From a virus: DNA of 51,796 nucleotides. The stretch lies in the IMG/VR virus record IMGVR_UViG_3300048918_000059. One strand, 5' to 3'. Every line of letters starts with the position of its first letter. Positions within the stretch are counted from its first letter, which is position 1. Under the pieces are notes generated by a model, which was not told the DNA's origin, ran no database searches, and saw nothing but the letters and a program-made list of their open reading frames with translations. The translations under genes were made by a program, and so were the position numbers. Positions 2,008-33,517 of the stretch are shown here, piece after piece.

Positions 2008-2198
2008 TATGCTTTAAGTTCTCGATAAGCTACAATTGTTCGTCCGGGTATTGTAGGAGCGTAAGCATTGCCTACATTCCAGTTGCCTTCGAAATATTCA
2101 TCGATATTAATAACTTCATCGTTGGCTAATTTGGCTTGTCCAAATTTGATAGGCTGTTCGCCGCCGTCCCATTTAATCCATTTGCCATAAATTGCCAT
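2007..2198 (-). CDS. hypothetical protein (63 aa)
   Basis: The track ORF 2007..2210 starts at the ATG inside a GATGGAGGA box. The ATG at 2198 sits 5 nt downstream of the GGAGGA and is the likelier start. The stop overlaps the polymerase start (TAATG). Confidence 0.6.
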   Translation of the reverse strand: MAIYGKWIKWDGGEQPIKFGQAKLANDEVINIDEYFEGNWNVGNAYAPTIPGRTIVAYRELKA

Positions 2199-2213
2199 AA
2201 TTTCCTCCATCCA

Positions 2214-3170: not shown

Positions 3171-3334
3171 TACGATTTATCCGAAAGCCAAACAGTCCGT
3201 GCATATTCCCATCCGGCACGCCAAGCAATGCCTTTAAGAGTGCTTAACTTGTAAGGTGGCGTAAATTGCTGTTTTACAAAATCGCAATATCCCTCACAGA
3301 AATATGCGTTATGCATTCGTCTATCACCAGCCAT
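3170..3334 (-). CDS. hypothetical protein (54 aa)
   Basis: Internal ATG at 3334 of track ORF 3170..3403, preceded by GGAGG about 9 nt upstream. It overlaps the helicase 3' end by 11 nt, and its stop overlaps the next start. Confidence 0.5.
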   Translation of the reverse strand: MAGDRRMHNAYFCEGYCDFVKQQFTPPYKLSTLKGIAWRAGWEYARTVWLSDKS

Positions 3335-5021
3335 AACCTGTAACCTCCGGATACTTCCTATTAACCACAACATCAATTGTCTTAGGTTTAGCCAATTGTG
3401 CATTCAAACGCAAGGCTTCGTCAATGTTAGTCGGCGGTTCTGTCGCACTGCGCTGCCGCCACCAATCCCTTGCAATCTTACCAGCATAGCCGCCATGCTC
3501 AAAGCCCTTAAGCTCTGTGAATGACCGCAATCCGCATTGATACGTCGCTTTAAGCATCGCCTTGTTGCCCTTTACCTCTTGACGAGTGTAAAAGACGTTA
3601 TCGACAGGAAATGTCTCGACTTGCGGCGCATCGCTTTCGGGTATCTGAGTACCGCGAATGATTTCGTCCGTGCCTGCTTGGTCGTACACTTTTGGGATTA
3701 GCTTGAACTGCGCCCCGCATTCATCGCAGTAGCGTGCCGAAGCATGGTTATAGCCACCGCAGCCTATAGCAACGCCAAACTCAGGCTGTACCAGCTTTTC
3801 AGTCTCACAAATCTTGATCGGCGCAACGCCGCCCTTGTCGCCTTTACGCTTCGGAATAACCGGGTCGTTGATCGGGCCTAGACGCGGCACATTGCCTACA
3901 AAGTCAAGCCCTCTGCAATTGATTTTCACATGACCGCAAAGACGCGCATAACGCTCTTGCTGCTTTGGAGATAGCTTGAACCAGTCGAAAGGCCGCGTTC
4001 CACGTCCCCACTTTTGTACATGCTTGCCAGTCGAAGTTGTTAGCTGAATATCGGCAATCAAATCTAGAAACGGGTTGTTGATGCCTACAGTTAGCACGTT
4101 TTGGTTTACTGCAAACGCGACTTCGTTAGCAAGCCATGCTAGAATATTAGCCGTGCGTTGCTTAGGCGACATTTTGGAATGCACGCCAACTGTAGGCAAA
4201 CCCATCGCGTTCAAAATCGCAACAGCTTCGTCAACATGCTTGACCGAGCTAACAAACACCAAGCCAGAACGGCGCTTTTCATGTAGGAACCATGCAACTG
4301 TTTCACGCAAAGCAGGCTCTAGAATGTGCTGCGCATCAACCGCGCGCTCAACTTCCGACTGCACGAAATCGCCGTTGCTAATATGAATTCCGGTGCTATC
4401 TAGCTTAATATCAGTAGGGCGGGCTACTACAGGTGCAAGATAGCCTTCTTCAATCAAGCGATTAAAGTTCTCGCGCGAAGTGCAATCGTAAATCACATCA
4501 TCAAATAGGCCACTATCGGTAATCATACCTTGGCCTAGACGATAGGGCGTGGCCGAATAGCCTATTACTTTCATATTCGGATTTATCGAACGCAGCTTTT
4601 CAATTGTAAATTGATAGCGCGTATCATCATTAGGCGAAACTAGATGCGCTTCATCAATAAAGCAAAGATCGCGCCAACCAAACATTTCGACGCAATTAGC
4701 TACCGATTGAATAGAGCCGTAAATAATGTCGTGCGCGGTATCTTTACGCTTAAGCCCAGCCGAGAATACGCCTACAGGTGCATTAGGCCAAATATCGCGC
4801 ATAGTTTGCGCATTGCCATCGACTAGCTCTTGCACGTGCGTTAAGTTAATAAACCGCTGGCCTGCAAACATTGACATAAAACGGCGCTGCGTTTCAGCCA
4901 TGGTGAAGCTCTTGCCGGTGCCCGTTGGCAAGGCAATGACGCAATTACCCTTGTTGCCTTGTGAGTAATACTCCAAAGGCGCGGCAATCGCTTCTTCCTG
5001 AAACCACCGCTTTTCGTACAT
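3324..5021 (-). CDS. SF2 DEAH-box DNA helicase with internal zinc ribbon
   Basis: 565 aa. Walker A ALPTGTGKS, DEAH box FIDEAHLV, and a Cys motif CGGYNHASARYCDECG. Confidence 0.85.
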   Translation of the reverse strand: MYEKRWFQEEAIAAPLEYYSQGNKGNCVIALPTGTGKSFTMAETQRRFMSMFAGQRFINLTHVQELVDGNAQTMRDIWPNAPVGVFSAGLKRKDTAHDIIYGSIQSVANCVEMFGWRDLCFIDEAHLVSPNDDTRYQFTIEKLRSINPNMKVIGYSATPYRLGQGMITDSGLFDDVIYDCTSRENFNRLIEEGYLAPVVARPTDIKLDSTGIHISNGDFVQSEVERAVDAQHILEPALRETVAWFLHEKRRSGLVFVSSVKHVDEAVAILNAMGLPTVGVHSKMSPKQRTANILAWLANEVAFAVNQNVLTVGINNPFLDLIADIQLTTSTGKHVQKWGRGTRPFDWFKLSPKQQERYARLCGHVKINCRGLDFVGNVPRLGPINDPVIPKRKGDKGGVAPIKICETEKLVQPEFGVAIGCGGYNHASARYCDECGAQFKLIPKVYDQAGTDEIIRGTQIPESDAPQVETFPVDNVFYTRQEVKGNKAMLKATYQCGLRSFTELKGFEHGGYAGKIARDWWRQRSATEPPTNIDEALRLNAQLAKPKTIDVVVNRKYPEVTGYGW

Positions 5022-5846: not shown

Positions 5847-6701
5847 CTAAATCACACTTTCCCATTGATCGCACGCTTTAGGCCAAAACTCTTTTGGTAT
5901 GACTGCACCATGCAAGTTACAATGCCATTCGCCATTTGCAACAGGAACACTATTGCGGCACGATCTGCAATTAACCTCAGGCTTCGCGCCATGATGGCAG
6001 ACATCATTGGCGAAGCAGCCTTTGCACAGCCAGAAAGTAGGGTTTGCCGATACGCGCTTAGGCGGCTCTTTCGTATAGATAATATCCTTTGCGCGCGCCT
6101 CTTTGCGCTCGCATTCCTCAAACGATAATTCTTCAATCTCTACATGGATTGTGTCGTCGTTCTTATTGATTGAGAGGTACAGAACGTGCTTAATTGAAAG
6201 CTTCGCACCGTAAATACTATTCTGGCTGAAATGCTCGGGGTGAACCTTCTTAACGCCTTCCGCGCAAAGCTTGTTAAAGCCTGAGCCCGTGCCTTTGGTT
6301 TTGTACTCAAGCAGGATAGGCCCGTCGCCATAGATTTCGGCAAACCATGAAGGCCCTTTAGCGATGCCATCAACAGAGCCGCCGAAATGCCCGTCAACTC
6401 CACTTACACGAAACTGCTTGCCGTTTTCGTCAACGTCCCAAACCGTAAAGCCGATGCCGCGCAGCCATTCCGTAAAGCGTTCTTCCTCGCGATGACCGCG
6501 ATTAAATAGGCGGTACATGCGGCCTGAAAAGTTAGCAGGCGCTAGCCACCGGAACGTTGCCCACAGTTGGAAGTCACACTCTTTGCCGATAATGCTTGCC
6601 CCCAAATGCGAGCGGTGCCCATCATTGTAGGCACGTTGGCAGTAGTTATCAATCTCGGTAGAGACGCGGCTTGCAAGCTGGCGACGGGTTTCAGCGTCCA
6701 T
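5847..6701 (-). CDS. PD-(D/E)XK (RecB/Cas4-like) exonuclease with C-terminal Cys cluster
   Basis: 284 aa from the ATG at 6701 (TAATG overlap with the upstream stop). VDGI...LLEYKTKG gives the D...ExK motif. C-terminal cysteines CKGCFANDVCHH...CRSCRN...HCNLHG. Confidence 0.7.
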   Translation of the reverse strand: MDAETRRQLASRVSTEIDNYCQRAYNDGHRSHLGASIIGKECDFQLWATFRWLAPANFSGRMYRLFNRGHREEERFTEWLRGIGFTVWDVDENGKQFRVSGVDGHFGGSVDGIAKGPSWFAEIYGDGPILLEYKTKGTGSGFNKLCAEGVKKVHPEHFSQNSIYGAKLSIKHVLYLSINKNDDTIHVEIEELSFEECERKEARAKDIIYTKEPPKRVSANPTFWLCKGCFANDVCHHGAKPEVNCRSCRNSVPVANGEWHCNLHGAVIPKEFWPKACDQWESVI

Positions 6702-6886
6702 TAGAAACAAAACCAAGCAGCGCACTTAGTGCATTTTACACCCCCGCCGCCATAGAAATTTGAATAGATAATACCATCGCAACCGGGGGTAGCTCCGTAA
6801 AGCTGGTCCAAAGGATGATTGCTGGCCTGCACGTCTTTACAAACATTGCTACTAGAAGGTTTTGCAAAAGTTTTAGTCTGTTCCAT
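6701..6886 (-). CDS. hypothetical Cys-containing small protein (61 aa)
   Basis: Track ORF. A GATGGAGG box lies 4 nt upstream of the ATG. Confidence 0.6.
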   Translation of the reverse strand: MEQTKTFAKPSSSNVCKDVQASNHPLDQLYGATPGCDGIIYSNFYGGGGVKCTKCAAWFCF

Positions 6887-12658: not shown

Positions 12659-12852
12659 GCAAGTTCCTCCATTCCGCGCCATAAAACATAATCATCAGGA
12701 AATGCTTTAAAGAACCTATCGCCCGGATTATGCTCGTTAGCTGCTTTTGCTAGATATTCTGCCCAAATGTCTTTTACATTTTCGGCAATAAGAATATCAG
12801 CAATGCTTTCTCTATTGAAATTATCAACAGCTACTATCTTCATTTCAATCAA
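12655..12852 (-). CDS. hypothetical protein (65 aa)
   Basis: Track ORF, AT-rich, immediately downstream of the GC-rich cassette. Confidence 0.6.
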   Translation of the reverse strand: MIEMKIVAVDNFNRESIADILIAENVKDIWAEYLAKAANEHNPGDRFFKAFPDDYVLWRGMEELA

Positions 12853-13673
12853 TCCTGCTTGGAGAGGGTGGCGAGGGCTTGGCGGGCGTTTAGAACGTCC
12901 TGCACCGTGACGAAGATTGCGGCTTCATCGGAGGGGTTCTCGGCGCCGGTGAGGTATATGACTTCCTCGCCCACGAGCGCTTCCAGCGCCTCTACCATCA
13001 CGCTATCCGGCACAGACGATGCCGGGGCGGTGAGGATAGGCGTATCGTCCAGCTCATAGGATAGCGCATCGCGCGGGCCGTCGGGGCCGTTGGGGTGCGT
13101 GTAGCTGATGGCCTCTTCGAGCGTGTATCGCCCCGCTTCTGTCTTGCTGGCGGTGTAGCCTTGCGCGTTGGGGCGATAGTAATAGCCGTCCTTTCGGATC
13201 AGGTAGCGATCCACCACCGGCGCCTGCTCTTTGGCGTGGGCGAGGCGGGTGTTCCACTGTGCGATGGCACGATAGTATGGCTTGCGGTGCTCACTATCGC
13301 TGAACGCCTTCGCACCACAGTTCTTGCAGGCGACGTGCGGCATTAGGGCCGTTTCAAAGGTGCCGATATAGACCCCTTCCCCACCACAGAACGGGCACGC
13401 CAGCATCTCTACTGGCGTATTGGGGTTAGCGGGCATGGCGATCGGCACCAAGCCGGGCCGAATTTTTCGTGACGCCTTCGCCATAACCGTAGCCGGGTGG
13501 CCGGCGTGCTGCTTGCAATACCCGTGGCCGGTCTTGGGGTCGCGATAGATTGCGGCGCGTGAGCAATATCCGTCTCCCTTCACAACGGCGTAGTGCGGGG
13601 AATAAACGGAGGGCGCCTGGAGCATTCGGCAGCACCGTTCACGCCCGTCTGCGGTCAACCTAGGCTCACTCAT
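12849..13673 (-). CDS. Lar-like (restriction-alleviation family) zinc-ribbon domain protein, GC-rich cassette
   Basis: 274 aa from the ATG at 13673 (MSEPRL...). The central segment CPFCGGEGVYIGTF...HVACKNCGAKAF...AIAQWNTR fits the Lar family pattern. The 91-aa N-terminal extension in the track overlaps the upstream gene and looks like out-of-frame junk. Confidence 0.55.
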   Translation of the reverse strand: MSEPRLTADGRERCCRMLQAPSVYSPHYAVVKGDGYCSRAAIYRDPKTGHGYCKQHAGHPATVMAKASRKIRPGLVPIAMPANPNTPVEMLACPFCGGEGVYIGTFETALMPHVACKNCGAKAFSDSEHRKPYYRAIAQWNTRLAHAKEQAPVVDRYLIRKDGYYYRPNAQGYTASKTEAGRYTLEEAISYTHPNGPDGPRDALSYELDDTPILTAPASSVPDSVMVEALEALVGEEVIYLTGAENPSDEAAIFVTVQDVLNARQALATLSKQD

Positions 13674-13953
13674 GTCCGCCAGCCTCCGCTTGCTTGCGCC
13701 ATTCAGTCGGGCAAACGAGGCACCCGGCGCGCATAGCGAAGCAGCCAAAGCCGCTGGGATCGGGCGTATATACGGAGGTGAAAAACGTATCGTCCGGGTG
13801 GACGCCGTTGTCGGTCTGGTAGCCGCGCGTAGCGAGAACCGGATGCTCCATAACAGCGTTGCGGACCTCCACCACGGTCTGCCACGGCGCGGTCGCGATG
13901 GGTTGCCAGTCGCCCCGCCCCTCCCGGCTCTGCTTTTCGTTATCAATAGTCAT
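13666..13953 (-). CDS. DUF551-like phage protein (95 aa), GC-rich
   Basis: WQPIATAP motif. An AGATGGAGGA box lies 6 nt upstream of the ATG. Confidence 0.65.
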   Translation of the reverse strand: MTIDNEKQSREGRGDWQPIATAPWQTVVEVRNAVMEHPVLATRGYQTDNGVHPDDTFFTSVYTPDPSGFGCFAMRAGCLVCPTEWRKQAEAGGHE

Positions 13954-13994
13954 CTAGTTTCCTCCATCTAAATGCCGATGATTACGCCCATCGG

Positions 13995-14120
13995 CTAGGC
14001 TTGTTTAGGTGGGTGCCTCAACGCTTCGACGTTGTACAACCTAAATGCGTAATCCGGTGCGTAGGCTAGCACTAGCCGGGCAACATCTTCGGTGGTGGGT
14101 TTCGGCCCCACGGCTCCCAT
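13995..14120 (-). CDS. possible small ORF (41 aa, below track cutoff)
   Basis: Hand translation MGAVGPKPTTEDVARLVLAYAPDYAFRLYNVEALRHPPKQA. The start lies 4 nt after the upstream stop and there is no clear SD. Confidence 0.3.
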   Translation of the reverse strand: MGAVGPKPTTEDVARLVLAYAPDYAFRLYNVEALRHPPKQA

Positions 14121-14123
14121 AAA

Positions 14124-14273
14124 TCATTCGCCTAGCCTATCGCGTTCTGCATAGGCTTCGGCTTTAGTTGCAAAAGGTCCGGCCAACCAACTTTGCATAA
14201 CCGGCGTTTTGACAACATAGCCTTGCGGCTTTTTGTAAACCTTAAGGTTGCGACCTTGGTAAAGTTTGCCCAT
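14124..14273 (-). CDS. first leftward early protein (49 aa)
   Basis: The track ORF starts at a TTG at 14333. The ATG at 14273 (MGKLYQGRNLKVYKK...) follows a CAGATGGAGGA box by 7 nt. Confidence 0.6.
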   Translation of the reverse strand: MGKLYQGRNLKVYKKPQGYVVKTPVMQSWLAGPFATKAEAYAERDRLGE

Positions 14274-14298
14274 CGCTTCATCCTCCATCTGTAGGCAC

Positions 14299-14326
14299 AC
14301 CATACGCCTTGGAAATCGGGTGTCAA
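14299..14326 (-). promoter_or_regulatory. putative leftward early promoter
   Basis: Minus-strand TTGACA (14326-14321), 16-nt spacer, then TATGGT (14304-14299). Confidence 0.45.
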
Positions 14327-14334
14327 TAGCCAAT

Positions 14335-14349
14335 GTGAATTTTTTTCAC
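14335..14349. promoter_or_regulatory. operator-like palindrome between the divergent promoters
   Basis: GTGAA-TTTTT-TTCAC, lying between the two back-to-back -35 hexamers. Confidence 0.4.
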
Positions 14350-14359
14350 CACTGAGATA

Positions 14360-14388
14360 TTGACACGCTGGCGATATTGGGCCTATCG
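14360..14388 (+). promoter_or_regulatory. putative rightward early promoter
   Basis: TTGACA (14360-14365), 17-nt spacer, then CTATCG (14383-14388). It contains a direct repeat GATATTG x2 (14356-14362 and 14373-14379). Confidence 0.4.
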
Positions 14389-14419
14389 TCCGCTCGATCC
14401 TTATAAAGAGCGTAACAGC

Positions 14420-14608
14420 ATGAATTTTATGGAAGACACGCGGACCATGCTTTTGAAGCTGGACCGAACAATAACCCTTACCGAAGTAGGCAAGCACACC
14501 GGGCTAACCGTAGCGTGGCTAAGTCGCTTTGCACGTGGCGACGTTGACAACCCCGGTGTTAGGCAAGTCGAAATTCTGCGCAATTGGCTCAATGCGCGGG
14601 AGGGCTAA
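14420..14608 (+). CDS. Cro/C1-type helix-turn-helix regulator (62 aa)
   Basis: The ITLTEVGKHTGLTVAWLSRFARGDVDNP segment is HTH-like. It is the first gene of the rightward arm. The track ORF begins at 14360, inside the promoter. Confidence 0.6.
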   Translation: MNFMEDTRTMLLKLDRTITLTEVGKHTGLTVAWLSRFARGDVDNPGVRQVEILRNWLNAREG

Positions 14609-14610
14609 GC

Positions 14611-16992
14611 GTGCCTACAGTGTATGACAACATTCCCGCCGAGCTTAAGGCGCGCGATCAATGGGTAGTTTGGAAGTCCGAACGCCTAGAAAATGGCAAG
14701 CTGACAAAGCGGCTTTATCAGTGCTCCGGCTATGGCGCTTCTGTCAATGATCCTAAGCATTGGGCTTCGTTCGCTTGCGCTGTTGAGTGCGCAGAGCGTT
14801 ACGATGGCATAGGCTATGTCTTTGCCGAGGATGATCCTTATTGTGGCATTGATCTAGATAACGCTAACAAGCATCCTAACCCGGATTTCCAGCTTCGTCG
14901 CCAATTGGAAGTATGGGAACGCTTTCAGTCCTATGCCGAACGCTCGCCTAGCGGTGAAGGCGCGCATATTATTATCAAAGCGAATATCGGCAAAGGTGTT
15001 CGTGATGGCGCACTAGAGATTTATAGTCAGCAAAGGTTCTTTACCTTTACCGGCAATGTTATTCGCGATCTACCTATTAACGACTATCAAGAGCTAGCGC
15101 TTGCACTTAAGCACGATCTTCGCCCAGATGATGAAGAAGGCACTGCTTACGACGATGCTAATCAAGCCGAGCGGTCGGATGATGAAGTATTAGCTTCATG
15201 TCGCGCAGCTTCAAATGCGGAATTATTTAACTCGCTTTATGCGGGCTCTGATGCCGAACACGGCGGCGATACATCGCGCGGCGATCTTGCGCTAATGAAT
15301 TTCATTGCGTTCCATAGCCGTAACCGCGATCAATCTTATCGCCTGTTCATGGCGTCAAAGCGCGGCGAGAGAGATAAATGCCACAAGCATAAATCGTATG
15401 TACCCGGCCTTATTGACAAAGCATTTATTGCTTTGCCTGATCCGGTGCAATTGGTGGATTTCGGGCCTATGTATGAAGCCGCTATGGCTTTAACGCAAAC
15501 CGCCCCCGAGGCGATGGAGGAAGCCCCGAGAGCGGCGAGCATCCCCCAAAAGGGCGCTAATGAGGCAACGAGCCCTGACGACGATATAGACGCAATTGGA
15601 AAGACGTTCAAGTACGTTCCGCCACCCGGTCTATTGGGTGAAGTGGCGCAATTTATTTATGCCCAAGCGCCCCAGCAAATTCCCGAAATTGCCATAGGCG
15701 GCGCTTTCGGCTTTATGGCTGGTATCTGTGGGCAAGCTTATAACGTGTCCGACAAAGGCCTTAATATCTATCTCATGGTCTTAGCTGGTACCGGTGTAGG
15801 CAAGGAAAGCATGGCGACCGGCATTGATCGGCTAATGTCTGCTGTCATTGCCAAGGTTCCTGCTGCCACTACATTCCAAGGGCCGGGAGAATTTGCTAGC
15901 CCTAGCGCAATGATTAAGCAAATTGCTGATACGCCTTGCAGCTTGTCTATCGGCGGCGAATTTGGTCTGCGCCTAAGGCAATTGTGCGATCCTAACGCCA
16001 AACATAACGAAATTGGCATTCGCCGTGCTTTCCTTGATTTGTATTCCAAGTCAGGTAAATATGGCATGGTTAAGCCATTGGTTTATTCTGATCGCGCAAC
16101 CAACACGCCGCCAATTCCGCAGCCCGCATTTAGTTTCCTCGGTGAAAGTACGCCGATGCGTTTTTACGATGCGATTGAAGCCGAGATGGTTGCGGAAGGG
16201 CTTATTCCACGTTTCTCTTTCATTGAGTACACCGGGCCTGTGCCGCCGTTCAATGAAAACCATGGCAAAGTTTTGTTACCTGATAGCTTAGTCAACAAAG
16301 CATCCTCACTAGCAGCATATGCCTTAACTATCGCGCATAACAAAGTGCCGATTGATGTTAATTATACGCCAGACGCCAAAGCGCTGCTAGATAGCTTTCG
16401 CGACTATGCGCGGCATCAAAATAACAATTCCGATTTTGAAATTACCAAGGAAATGTTTAGCCGCTCGCATATGAAGGTATTGAAGATTGCAGCCCTTATT
16501 GCTGTTGGGTGCGATTATATTAATCCAACTATCGATGTGCTAATTGCAGAATACGCAATAGGGTTTGTACTAACCGAAACCAATATTATGATTGAACGGT
16601 TTCAAAAGGGCGAAGTTGGTAAGCTTAAAAGCTCAACAATTGAAACTAAGCGAATTGAAGAAGTTGTTAAAGCTATTGCAGTTTTCGCCTTTTCACAATT
16701 TGGTGCCTACAAGGTTATCGGTGCAACTCCGGATGAACACGCACAAGGAATTGTTCGTAAGAACGCAATCCAAACTCGCGTATCGCCGTTGAAGCCATTC
16801 AATAACGCTTTGCCAAATACTGCTACCGCCGTTTTTCAGGCTTTACAAACCTTGGTTGAATGGGGTTGGTTAGATGAATTGGAGTTGCCCGGCGGCTCTA
16901 GAGGTCGAAAGCCTACGGGTTATAAGATTAGGGAAGAAGAACCTTTCATAGCTGCGTTTGCTAAAATGCAAGCTCATGGCAAGGGTAAATGA
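14611..16992 (+). CDS. bifunctional primase-polymerase (AEP/PrimPol) fused to a DUF3987/SF3-like helicase domain
   Basis: AEP motifs GIDLDN (DxD) and SPSGEGAHIIIK (sGxGxH). P-loop-like LAGTGVGKES in the C-terminal half. GTG start at 14611, 6 nt after GGGAGGG. Confidence 0.75.
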   Translation: MPTVYDNIPAELKARDQWVVWKSERLENGKLTKRLYQCSGYGASVNDPKHWASFACAVECAERYDGIGYVFAEDDPYCGIDLDNANKHPNPDFQLRRQLEVWERFQSYAERSPSGEGAHIIIKANIGKGVRDGALEIYSQQRFFTFTGNVIRDLPINDYQELALALKHDLRPDDEEGTAYDDANQAERSDDEVLASCRAASNAELFNSLYAGSDAEHGGDTSRGDLALMNFIAFHSRNRDQSYRLFMASKRGERDKCHKHKSYVPGLIDKAFIALPDPVQLVDFGPMYEAAMALTQTAPEAMEEAPRAASIPQKGANEATSPDDDIDAIGKTFKYVPPPGLLGEVAQFIYAQAPQQIPEIAIGGAFGFMAGICGQAYNVSDKGLNIYLMVLAGTGVGKESMATGIDRLMSAVIAKVPAATTFQGPGEFASPSAMIKQIADTPCSLSIGGEFGLRLRQLCDPNAKHNEIGIRRAFLDLYSKSGKYGMVKPLVYSDRATNTPPIPQPAFSFLGESTPMRFYDAIEAEMVAEGLIPRFSFIEYTGPVPPFNENHGKVLLPDSLVNKASSLAAYALTIAHNKVPIDVNYTPDAKALLDSFRDYARHQNNNSDFEITKEMFSRSHMKVLKIAALIAVGCDYINPTIDVLIAEYAIGFVLTETNIMIERFQKGEVGKLKSSTIETKRIEEVVKAIAVFAFSQFGAYKVIGATPDEHAQGIVRKNAIQTRVSPLKPFNNALPNTATAVFQALQTLVEWGWLDELELPGGSRGRKPTGYKIREEEPFIAAFAKMQAHGKGK

Positions 16993-28067: not shown

Positions 28068-28269
28068 TATTGTGGCGATTAGTTTAGGTTTAATGCAAGT
28101 TGCTACCAATGAAGGCGACATTTTGCCAATTGTTGATTTGTTGGACGAATTTGGCGATTACACGCTTGATGTTCATGAAACAGCAAGTGCTGTTGCCGGA
28201 CCTGATAAAAACGGACAATGGTGGCTTGTAGTTGTAGACGATTTCTCTACCGAGACGAAGCGGCACTAA
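28060..28269 (+). CDS. hypothetical acidic protein (69 aa)
   Basis: ATG at 28060 or 28045. The stop overlaps the TerL start (TAATG). Confidence 0.55.
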   Translation: MLDIVAISLGLMQVATNEGDILPIVDLLDEFGDYTLDVHETASAVAGPDKNGQWWLVVVDDFSTETKRH

Positions 28270-30707
28270 TGCAACCTAACGTTAATGTTGTTTGGGCTCC
28301 CCTTGCGGGTACATCGCAGGAGCTAGCAATCACAAGCCCTTGCGATATTACCATGTATCACGGCGCAAGAGGCCCCGGCAAAACCATTACTCAGCTAATG
28401 CGCTTTCGTAGCCGAGTAGGCCAAGGCTATGGCTCCTATTGGCGTGGTGTTATCTTTGACCGCGAGTTTAAGAACCTTGGCGATCTTGTCGCACAGTCCC
28501 GCCGTTTCTTTCCTAAGTTTGATGACGGCTGCAAGTTCCTGTCATCGGCACAGGAATATAAATGGGTTTGGCCTACTGGCGAGGAATTGCTATTCCGTCA
28601 TGTAAAGAAGATTGGCGACTATGACGGTTTCCACGGTTGGGAAGTGCCGTTCTTGGGTTGGAACGAGTTAACCAAGCATCCTACATCGGAACTTTACGAT
28701 AAGCTAATGTCAATTAACCGTAGTTCCTACACGCCTGAAAAAGACGGTTGGGTTGGGAGCGATACGGGTTATGGGCCGAATGGCGAAGTGCCGCCGCCTA
28801 TTCCGCTGGAAGTGTTTATTACTACCAACCCTTCCGGCCCCGGTCACAATTGGGTTAAGCGCCAATTTATCGACCCTGCACCTAATGGAACGATTGTCAA
28901 GAAAGAAGCGGCAATTTTTAACCCGCAAACTCAACTTGACGAAATTTACACAAAGACGCAAGTTGCAATTTTCGGCTCTTACCGTGAGAACAAGTTTCTT
29001 GATCCTAAGTACATTGCCGAACTTGACGCAATTACAAATGAGAACCTTCGTAGGGCTTGGCTTTATGGAGATTGGAACGTAACCGCAGGAGGCGCGCTAG
29101 ATGACCTATGGAACGAACGAAAGCACGTATTGCCGCGCTTCCCGATCCCGCGAAATTGGCGCATCGACAGAAGCATGGATTGGGGTTCTACTCACCCCTT
29201 TGCTTGTGCTTGGTGGGCTGAAACGAATGGCGAAGAAGTTATACTACCGGATGGCCGCACGTTTGCGCCTGCGAAGGGGAGCATAATTCAGATTGCCGAA
29301 TTGTACGCAACCGAGGGTGTCGGTACCAATAAGGGCTTGAAGTGGGGGCCTGCTTTATGTGCTGAAAAGATCATTGCGAAAGAAAAGGCGTTGATGCAAG
29401 GCGGTTGGATTGTAACACAGCCTTGGCCGGGACCGGCTGACAATCAAATTCGCAATGTCATAGACAGCGAAAGCGATACGATTGAAACCAAGTTCGCCAA
29501 GGCTGGCGTAAAGTGGACCGAAAGCGACAAATCGCCCGGTTCGCGTAAGAACGGACTAATTCTGTTGCGTGATCGTCTAGAGGCTGTCATAAGTAAACCC
29601 GAACTGCCCGGTTTATATGTAATGACACACTGTAGGGACAGCATTGATACGGTTACTAGCATTCAATATGACGAAGATAATGTTGAGGACGTTGATTGTT
29701 GGGTTGCCGGAACTTTAGTAGCAACGCCTAATGGTTCTAAGCCAATCGAACTAATCTCAGTTGGCGAAATTGTTAATACTCCCATCGGTCCTAGAATTGT
29801 CGAAGCGTCTTACGTTTCAGGCAAATCTAAAACCGTGCGCGTTACTCTGGAAAACGGGAAAATTCTTGAGGGGACGCCAGAGCATAAGATTTTCGTTTGC
29901 GGGAAGGGCCTTGTTCCTCTAGAACAGTTACAGCCGGATACGTTTGTAACAGAGGAAGAAAATCAGTGCCTACAAAAGTTGTCGTTTACAATGGCCTCAC
30001 TTATCGCCGCTATGAGGGCCGAAACTACTACAACCCCGGAATTTTTGCGCTCCAAGCAGGAGGAACAAGCCTTCATCGCCAAATATGGCTCGATGCTGGA
30101 CGCGAAATACCGGAAGGCTACCATATCCACCATGTTGACGGTGATCTTGATAACAACACTCTTGAAAATTTCGAGTGTTTATCGCCTACCGATCATGCTA
30201 ACGAGCATTTTGCAGAGCGCCGCGAAAAGCTTGCTGAGCAACTTGTTGTTTGGCGAGCAAGCGACGAAGGCAAAGCAATCTTACGGGACAACGCCCGCAA
30301 GTGTAGGGAGCGAACGCCAGAACGCGAACTTGCGTGCGGAAATTGTGGTAAGCAATTTGTTACTCAACACCCTACTGCTAAATACTGCTCAAACGAATGT
30401 GGAGAAAGCGCAGGGTATTGCCAAGTTCTCAAGAATTGTAAAATCTGCGATAAGCAATTTTGGGCAAAGCGTCATTCAACTAAAGAAGTCCAAACCTGTT
30501 CGCGTACTTGCGGTTGGGCATTGCGCCGAAGAAACGCTAGTGTATAATATCTCTGTAGCAGAGGCGCGATTGTTCTATGCAAACGGTATTCTTTCGAGTA
30601 ACACTAACTCGGAAGATCATATGTACGATGCTTGGCGTTATCGTTGCTTGAAGGGCGCGAACCGTGCTGCTGCGCCCGGTAGTGTTAAGATTAGGATGCC
30701 TACATGA
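28269..30707 (+). CDS. terL: terminase large subunit precursor, interrupted by an intein (29697..30602)
   Basis: Walker A HGARGPGKT, the ATPase region WNELTKH / ITTNPSGPGHNWV, and nuclease-domain motifs DRSMDWGSTHPFA and (after the intein) EDHMYDAWRY. The mature protein would be about 510 aa. Confidence 0.9.
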   Translation: MQPNVNVVWAPLAGTSQELAITSPCDITMYHGARGPGKTITQLMRFRSRVGQGYGSYWRGVIFDREFKNLGDLVAQSRRFFPKFDDGCKFLSSAQEYKWVWPTGEELLFRHVKKIGDYDGFHGWEVPFLGWNELTKHPTSELYDKLMSINRSSYTPEKDGWVGSDTGYGPNGEVPPPIPLEVFITTNPSGPGHNWVKRQFIDPAPNGTIVKKEAAIFNPQTQLDEIYTKTQVAIFGSYRENKFLDPKYIAELDAITNENLRRAWLYGDWNVTAGGALDDLWNERKHVLPRFPIPRNWRIDRSMDWGSTHPFACAWWAETNGEEVILPDGRTFAPAKGSIIQIAELYATEGVGTNKGLKWGPALCAEKIIAKEKALMQGGWIVTQPWPGPADNQIRNVIDSESDTIETKFAKAGVKWTESDKSPGSRKNGLILLRDRLEAVISKPELPGLYVMTHCRDSIDTVTSIQYDEDNVEDVDCWVAGTLVATPNGSKPIELISVGEIVNTPIGPRIVEASYVSGKSKTVRVTLENGKILEGTPEHKIFVCGKGLVPLEQLQPDTFVTEEENQCLQKLSFTMASLIAAMRAETTTTPEFLRSKQEEQAFIAKYGSMLDAKYRKATISTMLTVILITTLLKISSVYRLPIMLTSILQSAAKSLLSNLLFGEQATKAKQSYGTTPASVGSERQNANLRAEIVVSNLLLNTLLLNTAQTNVEKAQGIAKFSRIVKSAISNFGQSVIQLKKSKPVRVLAVGHCAEETLVYNISVAEARLFYANGILSSNTNSEDHMYDAWRYRCLKGANRAAAPGSVKIRMPT
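29697..30602 (+). mobile_element. intein (302 codons) in the TerL nuclease domain
   Basis: Block A CWVAGTLVAT (Cys1 at 29697-29699), block B GTPEHKIF, blocks F/G ETLVYNISVAEARLFYANGILSSN followed by a +1 Thr (30603). The central ~190 codons show no recognisable domain in this frame. Confidence 0.8.
29966..30547 (+). CDS. HNH endonuclease nested inside the intein in a different reading frame
   Basis: EGYHIHHVDGDLDNNTLENFECLSPTDHANEH is an HNH motif. It is followed by CGNCGKQF...YCSNECG and CKICDKQF...TCSRTCG zinc modules. Candidate GTG start at 29966, 8 nt after GAGGAAG (the track uses a TTG at 29897). There is no ATG in this frame. Confidence 0.8.
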   Translation: MPTKVVVYNGLTYRRYEGRNYYNPGIFALQAGGTSLHRQIWLDAGREIPEGYHIHHVDGDLDNNTLENFECLSPTDHANEHFAERREKLAEQLVVWRASDEGKAILRDNARKCRERTPERELACGNCGKQFVTQHPTAKYCSNECGESAGYCQVLKNCKICDKQFWAKRHSTKEVQTCSRTCGWALRRRNASV

Positions 30708-30838
30708 TTACCTATTGCAGCGAAAAGGCGTTCGCTAGAGTGCTTGAAGTTTGCGAAAACCCGCCGAAACCTTCCGCTGCGCTTATTGAGTTAGTGCGCA
30801 AGGGCCGTGCAATGCGAAAGGCCGAGTATGTCCGCTGA
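30704..30838 (+). CDS. hypothetical protein (44 aa, below track cutoff)
   Basis: ATGA overlap with the TerL stop. Hand translation MITYCSEKAFARVLEVCENPPKPSAALIELVRKGRAMRKAEYVR. Confidence 0.45.
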   Translation: MITYCSEKAFARVLEVCENPPKPSAALIELVRKGRAMRKAEYVR

Positions 30839-32303
30839 CTTCATCCACCCTGAACTTGTAGAAGTTCAAGACCAATACCAGCTAATCAGCGACTGCATCA
30901 AAGGCGCTAAGGCTGTTAAGGCGAGGGGCATCCTCTACTTGCCCGATCCTGATAGCGGGCTAGGCACAGCACAGTTAGGCGCTAATCCTCGCTATTACGG
31001 CTACATCGCAAGGGCAAACTTCTATAACGTTGCACAGCGCACGTTAGAAGGTTTGATTGGGCAAATCTTCCTACGCAATCCAAATATTGATGTTCCGAAC
31101 CGGCTTAACATTGTCAAGGCTGACGTTGACGGCGCTGGTGTTACGGCTGTGCAGCAAGCTAAGCTGGCTTGCGAGTATGTGTTGGGACATAGTAGAGCGG
31201 GACTGTATGTTGATTATCCTAAAGCCGAAGGTGCTACGACTGTAGCGGACCTAGAGTCAGGCAACATTCGCCCGACAATCGCGCTTTATCATCCCGAACG
31301 TATTAGGAATTGGGATTACATTAAGGTAGGTGCGAAGTCCAAGCTTTCACTTGTGGTTTTGGATGAGGATTATCGCAAGGAAGCCGCCGACCGCTTCACG
31401 CGGGAGATTGCTATTCAGCAACGTTGCTTAATCCTAGAGAACGGTGCCTACAAGGTTGAGATTTGGCGTGATGGCGTTTTGCATGAAACTATCACGCCGC
31501 AAGGGCCTAACCGCCAAGCATTAGACGAAATTCCATTTACCTTCATCGGCGTTAAGGCAAATGATGGTAAGGTTGAGCCGCCTGCAATGTACGCGCTTTG
31601 CGATTTAAACATAAGCCATTACCGCAACTCAGCCGATCATGAAGAGATGCTTTTCATCTGTGGGCAGGCTACGCCGGTTGCATCAGGATTGACGGCGGAA
31701 TGGGCGGAAAAGTTTGGTGAGATTAAGCTAGGCTCACGCACGGGCGTTCTGTTGCCTGCGGAGGGTAAGTTTGAGCTAGTCCAAGCCGAAGAACGCGACG
31801 CCATTTCAGCCGAGATGGAGCGCAAAGAGAAGCGCATGGTTGCCTTGGGCGCTAAATTGGTAGAGGAAAAGCAAGTCCAACGCACGGCCACCGAAGCAAG
31901 TCAGGACGAAGCGGCTGAAACTAGCGTGCTTTCGTCGGTCGCAAAGAATGTTGGTGCTGCCTACAAGTTTGCTTTTGAATGGTGCGCGTACTTAGTTGGG
32001 CTAGGCGACCGTACTAGCGTTGAGGGTGATAGCAAAATTACGTTTGACCTTAATTCGGAATTTGATCTTGTGCAGCTTTCGCCAGAAGAACGTAAGCAGT
32101 TGTTCGCAGAGTGGCAAGGCGGCGCTATTACTGATATGGAATACAGGGATAGCATGGTGCGCGCCGGTATTGCTACTGAGGACTTTGATTTGTGGGAAGC
32201 TGACCGCGATGCACGCGCGGAAAGAGAGGTTGCAAACGCTGCGGCAATGCTGCAAACTGAAGTTGAGATAACCGGCGATGGAGCTAAAAATGACGGAAGT
32301 TAA
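30828..32303 (+). CDS. portal protein
   Basis: About 491 aa, directly downstream of TerL and upstream of the head-morphogenesis gene, with an acidic C-terminal region. Start is the ATG at 30828 or the GTG at 30807. Confidence 0.7.
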   Translation: MSADFIHPELVEVQDQYQLISDCIKGAKAVKARGILYLPDPDSGLGTAQLGANPRYYGYIARANFYNVAQRTLEGLIGQIFLRNPNIDVPNRLNIVKADVDGAGVTAVQQAKLACEYVLGHSRAGLYVDYPKAEGATTVADLESGNIRPTIALYHPERIRNWDYIKVGAKSKLSLVVLDEDYRKEAADRFTREIAIQQRCLILENGAYKVEIWRDGVLHETITPQGPNRQALDEIPFTFIGVKANDGKVEPPAMYALCDLNISHYRNSADHEEMLFICGQATPVASGLTAEWAEKFGEIKLGSRTGVLLPAEGKFELVQAEERDAISAEMERKEKRMVALGAKLVEEKQVQRTATEASQDEAAETSVLSSVAKNVGAAYKFAFEWCAYLVGLGDRTSVEGDSKITFDLNSEFDLVQLSPEERKQLFAEWQGGAITDMEYRDSMVRAGIATEDFDLWEADRDARAEREVANAAAMLQTEVEITGDGAKNDGS

Positions 32304-32610
32304 GAACGTTAAGGAACTTATTGAAAATTGGCCTTATAAGGATAGTTTTCTTAATAATAGCTACGACCGCTATCAGTGCATTTTGCAACTTGAAAGTGTA
32401 ATGGCGCAATTGATCGAAGGAACTGCGCCAAAGGATTTGGTAAAGTATATGTTTCCTGTAATTAACTATATGCTTTCTCAAAGTATAAACGAAGAACATT
32501 ACCGCGAAGCCTATAAGGGCGAGTTGGCAGAAGCTTTGGCTACGGGCGCGGCAATTCCTGATAATGAAAATCCGCTTAAGATGTTCGCTAATGCCAACGC
32601 TAACGGATAA
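32290..32610 (+). CDS. hypothetical protein (106 aa)
   Basis: ATG 6 nt after GGAG. Relatively AT-rich. Confidence 0.6.
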   Translation: MTEVKNVKELIENWPYKDSFLNNSYDRYQCILQLESVMAQLIEGTAPKDLVKYMFPVINYMLSQSINEEHYREAYKGELAEALATGAAIPDNENPLKMFANANANG

Positions 32611-33517
32611 GATTATCCGCCACCAAGTCTATTTGGAAGGTTTGAAGTACGGCGCATTGTCAAGTGCCAATCCAATCCTTGTAGGCATGGAACGAGACAT
32701 ACGCGCATCCCTTGTAGGTATTCGTTCGGACGGCTTAGGTTTTTTGTCTAAAGCTGCTTTGCGTAAGTTAATGCGAACTTTGCGCATTAGTATCCTGCGC
32801 CGATACAATACTTACAGCGATAGCTTGTTAAAGTTCCTTGAAGCGTTCTTAGCTGTTGAGGTTCGACAAATGCGTTCGATCTTTGACAGCGAGCCGACGC
32901 CAGAGCCAAAGGAGGAAGATGATAACACCTTCGCCGCGCTTTGGTGGCCCCGCTTCAAATCGAGCATCCTCCCGGCAAACGGTATCGCGATGGACAGCTT
33001 CGTTAAAGCCCTTGGCCCCGCTGCGGCTATTGCTGCCACACAGGTGCTACAGAGGGCGGCGGTAAACCGATCTACGCTAGACGAGACGCTAGAGGCTGTT
33101 GCGGGCCTGCGCGGGCGCATGGAGGCTCAGACGCGAGCGGTTCTCGCCACGGCTCTGCAATCGGTATCCGCGCAATCCCAAGCCGCCTTTGCTAAGATTG
33201 TAGGCATAGAAGAATACGAATGGGTTTCGATCCTTGATAGCCGCACAAGCGAGATTTGCCGTACTCGCTCCGGTTTGCGTTACCTTTACGGTAAAGGGCC
33301 TTTGCCTCCTGCTCATCCTAATTGCCGCTCTATGATCGTTCCCGTAGTTGACGGTGCAGCGGTTCCAAACCCCTCTTTTAAAGATTGGGTTTCGGGCTTG
33401 CCTACAAAGGTAAGGAAGGATATGTTTGCGGGCGATGTTGGTGAGAAATTTGAAGGTACTCGCGCAATATCGTTGAAGGTTTATAAAGATAAGATTGAAT
33501 TGATTTTGATGGATTGA
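32591..33517 (+). CDS. head morphogenesis protein (SPP1 gp7 / Mu F-like minor capsid protein)
   Basis: SILDSRTSEICRTRSGLRYLYGKGPLPPAHPNCRSMIVPV matches the family signature D.rT...C.......P.HpnCRc. Confidence 0.8.
   Translation: MPTLTDKIIRHQVYLEGLKYGALSSANPILVGMERDIRASLVGIRSDGLGFLSKAALRKLMRTLRISILRRYNTYSDSLLKFLEAFLAVEVRQMRSIFDSEPTPEPKEEDDNTFAALWWPRFKSSILPANGIAMDSFVKALGPAAAIAATQVLQRAAVNRSTLDETLEAVAGLRGRMEAQTRAVLATALQSVSAQSQAAFAKIVGIEEYEWVSILDSRTSEICRTRSGLRYLYGKGPLPPAHPNCRSMIVPVVDGAAVPNPSFKDWVSGLPTKVRKDMFAGDVGEKFEGTRAISLKVYKDKIELILMD

Follow-up and report, generated by a model that had tools for sequence, protein, structure and literature searches.

A class-1 intein in a viral large terminase gene with an HNH homing-endonuclease gene predicted in an overlapping frame

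Analysis of the window, i.e. the whole 51,796-nucleotide stretch of viral DNA studied here (IMG/VR record IMGVR_UViG_3300048918_000059), indicates that its gene for the large terminase subunit (TerL) very probably houses a composite selfish element, in which a complete I-HmuI-like HNH gene is overprinted in the loop between blocks B and F of a class-1 intein. That a free-standing-type HNH gene lies overprinted inside the intein was the main proposal of an earlier sequence-only reading, and it is supported by comparative data, the same nesting being present in 80 of 104 distinct loci that encode this HNH family. The novelty claimed for it was overstated, because inteins with an out-of-frame endonuclease had already been described; unlike the architecture, the HNH family, the insertion site and the wide distribution appear to be undescribed. 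The features of the locus are as follows:

28218..29696 (+), TerL N-extein, spanning the ATPase domain and the greater part of the nuclease domain (Pfam and homologue alignment)
29697..30602 (+), class-1 intein of 302 aa, Cys1 to Asn302, then Thr+1 (exact excision, Hint homology)
29697..29945 (+), Hint N-lobe, in which block A is CWVAGTLVATPNG and block B is GTPEHK (T60/H63) (conserved columns)
29946..30491 (+), stop-free "shadow" segment of about 182 codons that the TerL frame reads through within the intein, with hardly any conserved residues
29952..29958 (+), Shine-Dalgarno (SD)-like GAGGAAG, 7 nt 5' of the HNH start (sequence)
29966..30547 (+), nested HNH homing-endonuclease gene of 193 aa, with GTG start and TAA stop, at offset +2 relative to TerL (Pfam, homologues)
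30071..30208 (+), HNH (His-Me finger) catalytic core, with H55-H56, N64/N68, H77 and H81 (HNH_3)
30335..30400 (+), zinc ribbon 1, C124-x2-C127 ... C141-S-x2-C145, four Cys invariant
30437..30511 (+), zinc ribbon 2, C158-x2-C161 ... C178-S-x2-C182, four Cys invariant
30492..30547 (+), doubly constrained overlap in which the Hint C-lobe begins (KPVRVLAVGHCAEETLVY) and the HNH protein ends (..CSRTCGWALRRRNASV and stop), conserved in both frames
30537..30602 (+), intein blocks F/G (LVYNISVAEARLFYANGILSSN), closing with Ser and the terminal Asn (conserved among homologues)
30603..30707 (+), TerL C-extein (TNSEDHMYDAWRY...), which carries the final nuclease motif before the stop codon (aligns to intein-less TerL C-termini)

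The host gene and its intein

The TerL frame runs without a stop for 829 codons (28218..30707, + strand). Homologues align from residue 24, and the start is therefore probably the second ATG, at 28266 (MQPNVNVVW), counted from which the predicted spliced TerL has 511 aa. The N-extein is matched by the Pfam models Terminase_3 and Terminase_6N, both under their curated cut-offs, and from residue 24 onward TerL is 58-62% identical to its counterparts in the Pseudomonas phage Kakheti25 and the Xanthomonas phage Pfeifenkraut. When the intein is excised in silico, the alignment with the intein-less TerLs of these two phages and with a further one, L158, has no gap over EDVD/TNSEDH. The insertion point lies five codons 5' of the C-terminal DH..D nuclease motif of TerL, 35 codons from the C-terminus of the protein. 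The canonical extein/intein junctions described previously (...EDVD/CWVAGTLV, GTPEHK and ...ANGILSSN/T) all read as claimed.

Within the intein, Cys1 (29697-29699) is conserved in all related loci; block B spans 29871-29888, with T60-P-E-H63 at 29874-29885 and GT..H kept across the family; and Asn302 (30600-30602) is followed by Thr+1 from 30603, relatives having either N/T or N/C. The Hint N-lobe shows dense invariant columns, both against P0002 and P0003 and over about 80 loci, across which blocks A, B, F and G are all conserved. The Pfam models Intein_splicing (27.3 bits) and Hint_2 (22.4 bits) both scored below their gathering scores; the joined N- and C-lobes, taken as a conceptual mini-intein, matched the gp41-1 intein (6QAZ, residues 6-127) over its full length with E=5e-7. 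An AlphaFold2 model of the whole intein, built on a 3-sequence alignment, was uninformative (pLDDT 38). The usual penultimate His is absent, Ser301 occupying that intein position. The sequence-only reading had identified this Ser correctly, but it is a trait of an intein subclade rather than an anomaly of one copy: inteins of the DVD/C...N/T subclade have S, T, A or C in the penultimate position (SSN/T, CSN/T, VTN/T), and those of other clades have VHN/C. Inteins without a penultimate His can splice, and splicing is predicted in the present case from the viability of the isolated phages phiCDHM19 and TJE1, which have the same architecture.

The nested HNH gene and its two open frames

The HNH frame runs without a stop from 29888 up to its TAA (30545-30547), and the ORF contains no ATG, as had been noted. 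A separate HMM search of the HNH part matched only the Pfam model HNH_3, above its curated cut-off (39.1 bits vs 24.8, E=6e-10), and bears out its reading as a nuclease. Homologues of 45-62% identity begin at an aligned position with M[AV]K..VY.G..Y.RY, and H55, H56, N64, N68, H77 and H81 are invariant in 17 sequences; the two CxxC...CSxxC zinc modules recognized earlier after the HNH core are likewise upheld, all 8 Cys being invariant. The AlphaFold2 model of the HNH protein has a mean pLDDT of 91. Its best Foldseek match in the PDB, I-HmuI (1U3E), is not significant (E=0.069, TM 0.23), and phmmer likewise gives a weak match to 1U3E (E=0.61). Going by the model, the protein would have in common with I-HmuI-type HNHs the HNH_3 core, N-terminal beta-hairpins, long helices and a C-terminal DNA-binding module; I-HmuI ends in a helix-turn-helix, and the protein here ends in two zinc ribbons. 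The proposed start context holds as regards the GAGGAAG motif and the GTG, while the spacing between them is N7 and not N8.

The HNH gene was confirmed to lie in a frame other than that of TerL, and the TerL frame to have no stops across it. The stretch open twice, put at about 580 nt in the sequence-only reading, measures 660 nt, or 582 nt when counted from the GTG at 29966. The comparison made there, in which no other off-frame run exceeded about 110 codons, needs correction, the longest being 122 codons in the window's other long open frames (250 aa or more). In a chance test that resampled synonymous codons from the window's own codon usage, 4.9 TerL-frame stops were expected (P(0)=0.002) and 0 were observed; the third frame over the same HNH ORF has 15 stops. 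Chance openness of the TerL frame is excluded by this resampling, by the 80 independent loci and by the stop counts of phiCDHM19 given below.

The two frames differ in how they evolve. The shadow segment has only 12 invariant columns among 3 homologues, and its mean pairwise identity is 25% in the TerL frame versus 45% in the HNH frame. Across the overlap, substitution rates at codon positions 1, 2 and 3 are 0.44/0.39/0.62 in the HNH frame, with the peak at position 3, and 0.40/0.62/0.45 in the TerL frame, with the peak at TerL codon position 2; the Hint part, in the TerL frame, has the classical 3>1>2 pattern (0.46/0.34/0.70). These rates and identities support purifying selection on the HNH frame of the overlap and not on its TerL frame. 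In the short stretch 30492..30547 invariant residues occur in both: K266, P267, R269, A272, V273 and G274 in the TerL frame, and C178, S179, C182, G183, W184 and R187 in the HNH frame.

Recurrence, recoding and rival explanations

Alignment of homologous loci showed the HNH gene nested off-frame with a host frame (HNH+1) of 0 stops in the 80 loci mentioned above, at an offset identical in all of them; among these 80, no homologue with TerL-frame stops in the segment was found. The third frame of the nested loci has a median of 12 stops, and where the contig is complete the host ORF is mostly a TerL of 560-1250 aa. The equivalent host frame of free-standing homologues has 1-12 stops. Two isolated phages, Clostridium phiCDHM19 and Tetrasphaera TJE1, carry the arrangement, and in both the HNH match lies under a single CDS annotated as 'terminase large subunit'; in the AT-rich phiCDHM19, 208 codons have 0 host-frame stops vs 31 in the third frame. 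The HNH family ranges over phages or prophages of Proteobacteria, Firmicutes, Actinobacteria, Bacteroidota and Chloroflexota, with further members in archaeal MAGs; no SEA-PHAGES phage was found among the tblastn matches to it. Other layouts of the family include a member inside a broken TerL with a split-intein layout in Vibrio phage 1.238.A, free-standing homologues that adjoin terminase genes in PAE1 (TerL-HNH-portal) and BP10 (HNH-TerS-TerL), and decayed copies, with frame switches in P0018 and P0019 and neither frame intact in L088.

The codon usage of the nested genes bears the mark of their position. The share of Leu/Ile/Val codons that end in A or G is 25.5% in nested HNH ORFs, compared with 43.4% in the N-extein of the same gene (p=4e-13) and 51.9% among the free-standing homologues (p=2.5e-9), and Met is depleted 3-4-fold in nested ORFs. 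The scarcity of both kinds of codon implies that host-frame stops have been removed: as TerL is essential, a stop in its frame would be lethal, and the HNH gene would consequently have been synonymously recoded. The earlier suggestion of selection to keep the TerL precursor translatable across the nested gene is thus borne out by recurrence, recoding and frame-specific substitutions. A start codon stands at the aligned HNH N-terminus in 75 of the 80 nested loci, and in 65 of these it is ATG; an SD-like motif of four or more bases precedes it in 51 of 75 nested homologues, against a background of 23%, about a third having no obvious SD. In 46 of 80 loci the HNH-frame stop that precedes the aligned N-terminus is no more than 30 nt away, and in 31 of the 80 no more than 15 nt.

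The distribution of the intein points to mobility. None of the 15 IMG/VR TerLs nearest to this one (up to 76% identity) has it, and neither do the cultured TerL relatives Kakheti25 and Pfeifenkraut. Among the carriers compared, inteins 41-64% identical sit within exteins 28-41% identical, both intein and HNH being more alike than the exteins, and the identities of extein and HNH are not correlated (rho 0.25, p 0.41). Closest TerLs without the intein and similar inteins in distant TerLs fit homing; conservation of the intein above the extein could in principle also reflect constraint instead of transfer. Splicing, internal initiation, the cleavage target and homing, which we infer from the sequence, would combine as follows. 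Ribosomes on TerL would pass through the HNH DNA in the TerL frame, making about 180 residues of unselected linker; the two Hint lobes would fold together and splice, leaving a functional TerL of about 511 aa. Separate initiation at the internal SD-GTG (29952-29968) would yield the 193-aa HNH protein. On co-infection the HNH protein would nick or cut intein-less TerL alleles near the insertion site, and repair would copy the intein and the HNH gene into the cut alleles.

Two alternatives deny that the second frame is a gene translated from its own start. An assembly or sequencing artefact, in which two compensating indels had shifted the middle of a canonical in-frame HNH intein, has a practically negligible probability. 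Errors of this sort exist in public data, for instance in the related contig L003, a long-read-style 'contig_' record with extra frame switches and a fragmented TerL. Indels, however, would neither leave the host frame open nor produce the depletion of NTR and ATG codons, and the offset is the same in 80 distinct loci, which come from independently assembled sequences and include complete genomes of phage isolates; the HNH's own start codon, placed where its homologues start, and the residues conserved in both frames at 30492-30547 also speak against it. Production of the HNH as a fusion, either through programmed -1 frameshifting or through two shifts that would give an in-frame HNH intein, is highly improbable. 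It would suit the HNH frame being the -1 frame of TerL and open in the window for 78 nt 5' of the GTG, as well as those nested copies that have no recognisable SD. Yet only 5 of 80 loci, the one under study not among them, have a canonical X_XXY_YYZ heptamer in the stretch where a shift would be permissible, the stops within 15 nt upstream would intervene in 31 loci, the conserved feature is the ATG at the aligned N-terminus, and completion of the intein would need a second shift back to the TerL frame.

The remaining alternatives concern what the nested gene does. The HNH could be a terminase packaging cofactor like HK97 gp74, merely housed in the intein loop, an alternative already raised in the sequence-only reading. 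The free-standing family members beside the terminase genes of PAE1 and BP10 would agree with this, as would the observation that phage zinc-ribbon HNH proteins encoded beside terminase genes in many cases act by nicking (Xu and Gupta 2012, PMC3592412). We nevertheless consider it quite improbable and find it not supported: the domain is HNH_3, of the I-HmuI type, and not the small gp74-type HNH; the gene is nested in terL, while those of the gp74 type stand alone beside terS, at a genome end or by cos, and encode a protein that terminase requires to cleave; Kakheti25 and Pfeifenkraut have TerS-TerL-portal with no HNH annotated in that region; the 15 closest IMG/VR relatives, compared over TerL, are without the intein that would house it; and its sporadic co-occurrence with an intein at a conserved catalytic motif, patchy against the extein tree, is the pattern of a selfish element. 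That the HNH gene here is a silent relic, leaving a mini-intein with a long junk loop on which only stop avoidance acts, is unlikely. Its GTG start in place of ATG, a candidate hairpin that might hide the SD in the window (sequestration not significant, z=-1.5) and the decayed copies elsewhere would fit such a relic; the 193-codon ORF is intact all the same, with every invariant catalytic and Cys residue kept, and an unselected HNH frame would soon gain stops, as in the third frame with its 15.

The HNH_3/zinc-ribbon gene and its Hint shell might together form an old, highly successful mobile module and be no rarity, with interconverting forms, across many unrelated TerL families in phages of most bacterial phyla and some archaea; this is a tentative extension, in our estimate slightly less probable than its denial. 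Such a module, seated at the C-terminal nuclease motif of TerL, may nearly always take the form of one recoded +2 overprint, and may still interconvert with free-standing HEGs just 3' of terL (PAE1, L058, L047), with split TerL (Vibrio phage 1.238.A) and with decayed forms. If true, these would be a living series of intermediates for the acquisition of endonucleases by inteins and for the origin of split inteins. On this tentative view, translation of the nested gene could also be coupled to, or gated by, the ribosomes that translate TerL.

Comparison with known systems

Canonical HNH inteins carry their nuclease as a domain in frame; here it is out of frame. Kelley et al. 2016 (PMC5050341) showed experimentally that mycobacteriophage TerL inteins splice and that some cleave intein-less alleles, both cleavage-active inteins having an identifiable HEN domain within the intein. 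The intein described here likewise resides in a large terminase, but all seven of their sites are in the N-terminal ATPase domain and the present one is at the C-terminal nuclease motif. The fractured genes and split inteins of Dassa et al. 2009 (PMC2677866), with terminase among the host genes, similarly have a free-standing-type HEG flanked by the two intein parts, N and C, within a phage gene that is essential, and their gp41-1 split intein is the closest solved relative of the Hint domain here. Their HEGs are GIY-YIG or Vsr-like, whereas ours is HNH; and since the host frame, unlike in those loci, is unbroken, the present intein would be contiguous (cis-splicing).

Overprinting by itself has precedents. 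The ShiLan domain (Arsenault et al. 2025, PMC11855218), a hidden out-of-frame HNH in a mycobacteriophage DNA methylase, is comparable as a GTG-start HNH overprinted on an open host ORF with the behaviour of a homing element. It has no Hint or splicing domain, and the read-through peptide remains in the host protein, whereas here Hint lobes flank the HNH and the intein would remove that peptide; and it has no detectable RBS, leaderless initiation being proposed, whereas SD-like motifs are enriched here. Phillips et al. (bioRxiv 10.64898/2026.09.14.751524) described a cyanobacterial dnaX intein with a LAGLIDADG HE in the +2 frame, and credit Gorbalenya 1998, on 'non-canonical inteins', with the first proposal. 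The dnaX case resembles ours in the overlapping +2 ORF, in purifying selection on the HE frame with a relaxed host frame and in its sporadic occurrence, and differs in involving a cellular gene and a LAGLIDADG enzyme, not a phage terminase.

The nearest parallel in architecture, which its authors called rare, is that of actinophage TerL inteins with an out-of-frame EndoVII-like nuclease (Gosselin et al. 2025). As here, a same-strand endonuclease ORF lies between the splicing blocks of a TerL intein in 'frame 3' (offset +2); on re-examining the Keitabear intein from their supplement we found the extein/intein frame open and the endonuclease at offset +2. The origin they proposed, in which a free-standing HEG invades an intein, may apply here too. 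Their nuclease has the EndoVII motif CVDHDH..GLLC..CN (about 125 aa, IPR004211), as against HNH_3 with two zinc ribbons in 193 aa; the Hint subtype differs; and their intein begins at nt 1147 of the TerL gene (about codon 383), as against 35 codons from the TerL C-terminus. As the Keitabear HEN is unrelated in sequence and the HNH protein here matches HNH_3 alone, the element of the present virus represents a distinct variant.

An intein in the nuclease domain of the large terminase

The relevant features of the window, including the large terminase (TerL) gene, are as follows:

28218..30707, + strand: TerL ORF of 829 codons, in which the large terminase comprises the N-terminal 490 and the last 35 residues
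29697..30602, in the TerL frame: intein of 302 aa
29966..30547, offset +2 relative to TerL: HNH gene with a GTG start, 193 aa
30704-30838: 44-aa ORF that overlaps both TerL, at its stop (ATGA), and the beginning of the following gene
30807-32303: DUF4055-containing protein, at the position of the portal gene in homologous phages
32564-33517: Mu F-like head protein, following the DUF4055 gene
12849-13946, - strand: 364-aa protein with a Lar restriction-alleviation domain, in the early region
3324-5021, - strand: ResIII/DEAD-type helicase, in the early region on the strand opposite to TerL

The gene order from TerL to the head protein matches that of Septimatrevirus-like phages. For an identical sequence on a 38,230-bp contig, the public JGI annotation calls only a 231-aa 'hypothetical protein' (P0001, a protein-search match equivalent to 30017-30707), beginning at a Met within the TerL frame (MRAETTTT...); there the terminase looks fragmented.

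Matches of the TerL ORF to Pfam Terminase_3 and Terminase_6N fall below the curated cut-offs, and none of the TerL-annotated DNA matches from 230 phage records covers the insert. Three-frame translation of 29697..30650 bore out the frames described by the sequence-only reading: frame 0 reads CWVAGTLVATPNG...GTPEHKIF...LVYNISVAEARLFYANGILSSN/TNSEDH with zero stops, frame +1 has many stops across the intein, and frame +2 stays open between 29888 and the TAA at 30545-30547, encoding ...HIHHVDGDLDNNTLENFECLSPTDHANEH... followed by two CxxC...CSxxC modules. In-silico removal of 29697..30602 yields an end-to-end alignment, gapless at the junction, with two intein-less TerLs, namely those of Xanthomonas phage Pfeifenkraut (61% identity to the spliced window TerL; ...VDDVD/TTAEDHSWD...) and Pseudomonas phage Kakheti25 (58%; ...IDDVD/TNAEDHCYD...). 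The empty, intein-less site would read ...GAGGACGTTGAT/ACTAACTCGGAAGATCAT..., with the slash marking the insertion point. Pfam Intein_splicing and Hint_2 matches to the frame-0 intein are sub-threshold only; a 128-aa mini-intein obtained by joining the two Hint lobes matches the solved gp41-1 intein 6QAZ over its full length (E=5e-7). The insert is therefore a class-1 intein (Cys1, TxxH, Asn/Thr+1) with exact junctions. The insertion point lies in the TerL nuclease domain, five codons upstream of the C-terminal DH..D motif, which, from TerL nuclease structures, we take to be the catalytic motif of this domain. In a three-way frame-0 alignment invariance is dense at intein residues 1-75 and 266-302 and nearly absent between them. 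An AlphaFold2 model of the 302-aa intein, based on a 3-sequence alignment, was unusable (pLDDT 37.6), and scanning the intein for promoters and terminators gave no signal above shuffled expectation.

The +2 frame matches Pfam HNH_3 with 39.1 bits (curated cut-off 24.8, E=6e-10), and H55, H56, N64, N68, H77, H81 and all eight cysteines are invariant in the HNH alignment. The AlphaFold2 model of this protein is confident (pLDDT 91); a Foldseek search of the PDB with it returned no match at E<=0.001, the top match, I-HmuI, being only suggestive, and phmmer matches in the PDB were weak too. Two details of the sequence-only reading required revision: the spacing between the Shine-Dalgarno (SD) motif and the GTG is 7 nt rather than 8 (GAGGAAG-N7-GTG), and the longest off-frame open stretch within the window's other long ORFs is 122 codons rather than about 110.

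Recurrence and selection in the overlapping frames

Used as a protein query, the frame-0 intein recovered two distant homologues (P0002 and P0003; 37-38% identity, 100% coverage) that are likewise stop-free through the central region, and their contigs (L001 and L002 among the fetched DNA loci) each contain an intact HNH ORF, again at offset +2, that begins with its own ATG. The HNH frame recovered 19 homologues, the closest 13 full-length ones being 191-208 aa with 49-61% identity. With an HNH-family profile we then retrieved 80 IMG/VR loci (of at least 547 confirmed tblastn matches) and 67 loci from GTDB genomes, counting a locus as nested if the host frame, HNH+1, had zero stops across the HNH and continued for at least 60 codons beyond it. 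By local tblastn and stop counting, 80 of the 104 distinct loci with a near-full-length HNH are nested; their host frame is usually a 560-1250-aa ORF with a TerL N-terminus, and the median number of stops in their third frame is 12. The other 24 are free-standing copies with 1-12 stops in the HNH+1 frame. Source genomes in GTDB include Streptomyces, Corynebacterium, Nocardiopsis, Chloroflexota, Bacteroidota and Peptococcus, as well as MAGs assigned to Halobacteriales and Methanimicrococcus. The profile matches 729 representative clusters at E<=1e-30 and 6303 at E<=1e-10, nested and other copies taken together.

Standard annotation misses the nested gene. In four isolated phages in GenBank the HNH-matching region falls within a CDS labelled 'terminase large subunit': Tetrasphaera phage TJE1, Clostridium phage phiCDHM19, Acinetobacter phage Highwayman and Rhodobacteraceae phage LS06-2018-MD07. 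The feature tables of TJE1 (L152, terL 13379-15565) and phiCDHM19 (L153, gp2 443-2842) each give one TerL CDS and list neither intein nor HNH. In the AT-rich phiCDHM19, 208 codons contain 0 stops in the host frame versus 31 in the third frame.

Could the doubly open stretch have arisen by chance or through sequencing error? When the HNH protein was held fixed and synonymous codons were redrawn from the window's own codon usage, 4.9 stops were expected in the TerL frame and zero occurred in only 0.2% of trials; permuting the HNH ORF's own codons left the TerL frame stop-free in 3.5%. Paired indel errors, which the sequence-only reading had named as a possible artefact, cannot explain the pattern, since a stop-free host frame recurs across many loci and in isolated phage genomes. 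We regard this comparative sequence evidence as decisive against both chance and artefact. An apparent in-frame intein-HNH fusion (L003/P0012) was excluded as evidence because frameshifts run all through the TerL of its contig, which is error-prone or decaying.

Per-position substitution rates point to the frame under selection:

Substitution rates at codon positions 1/2/3 among 16 members of the window's subclade
HNH region, HNH frame: 0.44/0.39/0.62
HNH region, TerL frame: 0.40/0.62/0.45
Hint N-lobe, TerL frame: 0.46/0.34/0.70

Within the HNH region, position 2 of the TerL codons is the most substituted, the opposite of a selected coding frame; mean amino-acid identity there is 45% when the HNH frame is translated and 25% for the TerL frame. 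In mid-intein, stop avoidance is the only visible selection on the TerL frame. Host-frame stops come from HNH codons NTA or NTG before a purine and from ATG before A, and codon usage in the nested copies is skewed as follows:

Codon usage: Leu/Ile/Val codons ending in A or G; Met codons
Nested HNH ORFs: 25.5%; 0.5%
N-extein, same gene: 43.4% (p=4e-13); 2.0%
Free-standing homologues: 51.9% (p=2.5e-9); 1.5%

Such recoding explains why the HNH frame of the window is free of ATG, as the sequence-only reading had observed. With unbiased codons the host frame in use would need about 5 stops removed and the other frame about 17, and this lower load may explain the usual offset. That offset is not obligatory, given that a relative in a Rhodobacteraceae MAG (L136, JAGRDO010000066.1, 1531-3210), nested in an intein of the form C...SHN/T within a different, non-TerL-looking 560-aa ORF, has its host frame at HNH+2 instead of HNH+1.

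Expression, mobility and decay of the nested gene

A start codon is present at the aligned N-terminus in 75 of the 80 nested loci (65 ATG, 7 GTG, 3 TTG), and 51 of these 75 have an SD-like motif of at least 4 nt at -18..-4, against a background of 23%. In 46 of the 80 an HNH-frame stop lies within 30 nt upstream of the aligned N-terminus, and only 5 contain a canonical -1 slippery heptamer. This combination makes independent internal initiation the best-supported route to the HNH protein, as judged from sequence; programmed frameshifting was rejected for want of conserved slippery heptamers. In the window, UCCUCU (29915-29920) pairs with the SD region AGAGGA (29951-29956) in a hairpin of -19.6 kcal/mol that might sequester the ribosome-binding site; the hairpin is not significant (z=-1.5), and RNAalifold over 11 loci found zero consensus pairs at the HNH start.

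The intein is absent from the closest TerL relatives, namely Kakheti25, Pfeifenkraut and the 15 nearest in IMG/VR (at most 76% identity); one of the intein-less IMG/VR relatives (L158) has the junction ...EDVA/TDAEDHMYDAWRY.... Intein carriers of the subclade share 41-64% identity with the window in the Hint N-lobe and 40-57% in the HNH, but only 28-41% in the exteins, and extein identity is no guide to HNH identity (rho 0.25, p 0.41, n=13), a weak correlation that is compatible with transfer though not a formal phylogenetic test. The Hint/HNH module occupies homologous positions in several TerL families (DVD/C...N/T, DH/C...HN/CDALRY, DA/C...HN/CVWA). Together with the free-standing copies beside terminase genes described below, these observations fit a homing element that would target and cleave conserved nuclease-motif DNA. 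An HK97-type packaging HNH, offered by the sequence-only reading as an alternative identity, was judged unlikely.

Free-standing family members are found in Pseudomonas phage PAE1 (L151, 2265-2882; order TerL-HNH-portal) and Acinetobacter phage BP10 (L154; order HNH-TerS-TerL), and in two further loci (L058, L047) the HNH begins directly after an intein-less TerL with its DH/CDA.RY site intact. These four copies, which either directly follow an intein-less terL or precede terS, lie at most about 100 bp from the site that nested copies occupy elsewhere.

Several relatives are split, decayed or rearranged. The isolated, N4-like Vibrio phage 1.238.A (L157, NC_055735.1 3375-9022; locus 2100-3420) has the HNH family at the same +2 offset with 10 TerL-frame stops inside the match; its TerL-N plus IntN stops at record position 5941, and its 'hedgehog/hint domain protein' (6476-6793) is IntC plus TerL-C (...DDVVVHN/CDTISML). 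This phage has a fractured TerL whose intein is split, with an HNH gene, absent from the annotation, between the two halves. In two decayed proteins (P0018, P0019) the N-terminal half of the HNH frame-switches into the intein C-lobe and C-extein, with loss of the zinc ribbons, and in a decayed Methanimicrococcus MAG locus (L088, 4480-4495) one spot breaks both frames. In an uncultured Clostridia MAG (L119, CAKUKM010000009.1, 3104-4691) the HNH forms an in-frame fusion with an unrelated domain of about 290 aa at its N-terminus, and after the HNH the +1 frame encodes IntC and the TerL C-extein (...GGLIVHN/CIDSARY); this locus may be rearranged or fractured.

Significance and relation to published systems

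Strong comparative evidence upholds both the observation and the main interpretation of the sequence-only reading; for the window itself we infer splicing, internal initiation and homing from sequence comparison. The system is a clean natural case of dual coding with a measurable recoding signature, in which the nested selfish gene, constrained by an essential host frame, must avoid about five codon contexts prone to stops and almost every Met codon. Its family spans free-standing, nested-contiguous and split forms, and is a good test system for the model in which free-standing homing endonuclease genes (HEGs) invade inteins and for the origin of split inteins. It may also supply compact gp41-1-related inteins able to accommodate a loop of some 180 residues, as well as putative site-specific HNH nickases.

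The architecture of an out-of-frame intein endonuclease is already published. Our literature search found no description of an HNH_3 with two zinc ribbons as a nested intein gene, of the insertion site in the C-terminal nuclease motif of TerL, or of the breadth of this family; mycobacteriophage TerL inteins are all in the ATPase domain (Kelley et al. 2016, PMC5050341). Dassa et al. 2009 (PMC2677866) described a free-standing HEG between split-intein halves and a model of HEGs invading inteins, and gp41-1 is a split intein from their 'fractured genes'. Phillips et al. (bioRxiv 10.64898/2026.09.14.751524) report a cyanobacterial dnaX intein with a +2-frame LAGLIDADG gene and credit Gorbalenya 1998 with the idea, and Arsenault et al. 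2025 (PMC11855218) describe a methylase without a splicing domain that hides an out-of-frame HNH. Gosselin et al. 2025, who called an out-of-frame intein endonuclease previously unreported and rare, propose that a free-standing HEG invaded an intein. With at least 80 distinct nested loci in a small sample and at least 547 tblastn-positive IMG/VR stretches, the arrangement is less rare than published. Sequence comparison found no relation between the present family and the published actinophage EndoVII-type elements: the nuclease of the Keitabear TerL intein of Gosselin et al. is an EndoVII-type protein (CVDHDHETGRVRGLLCNDCN) unrelated to the window HNH, and the intein is shorter, but its translation here revealed the same +2 overprint as in the window.
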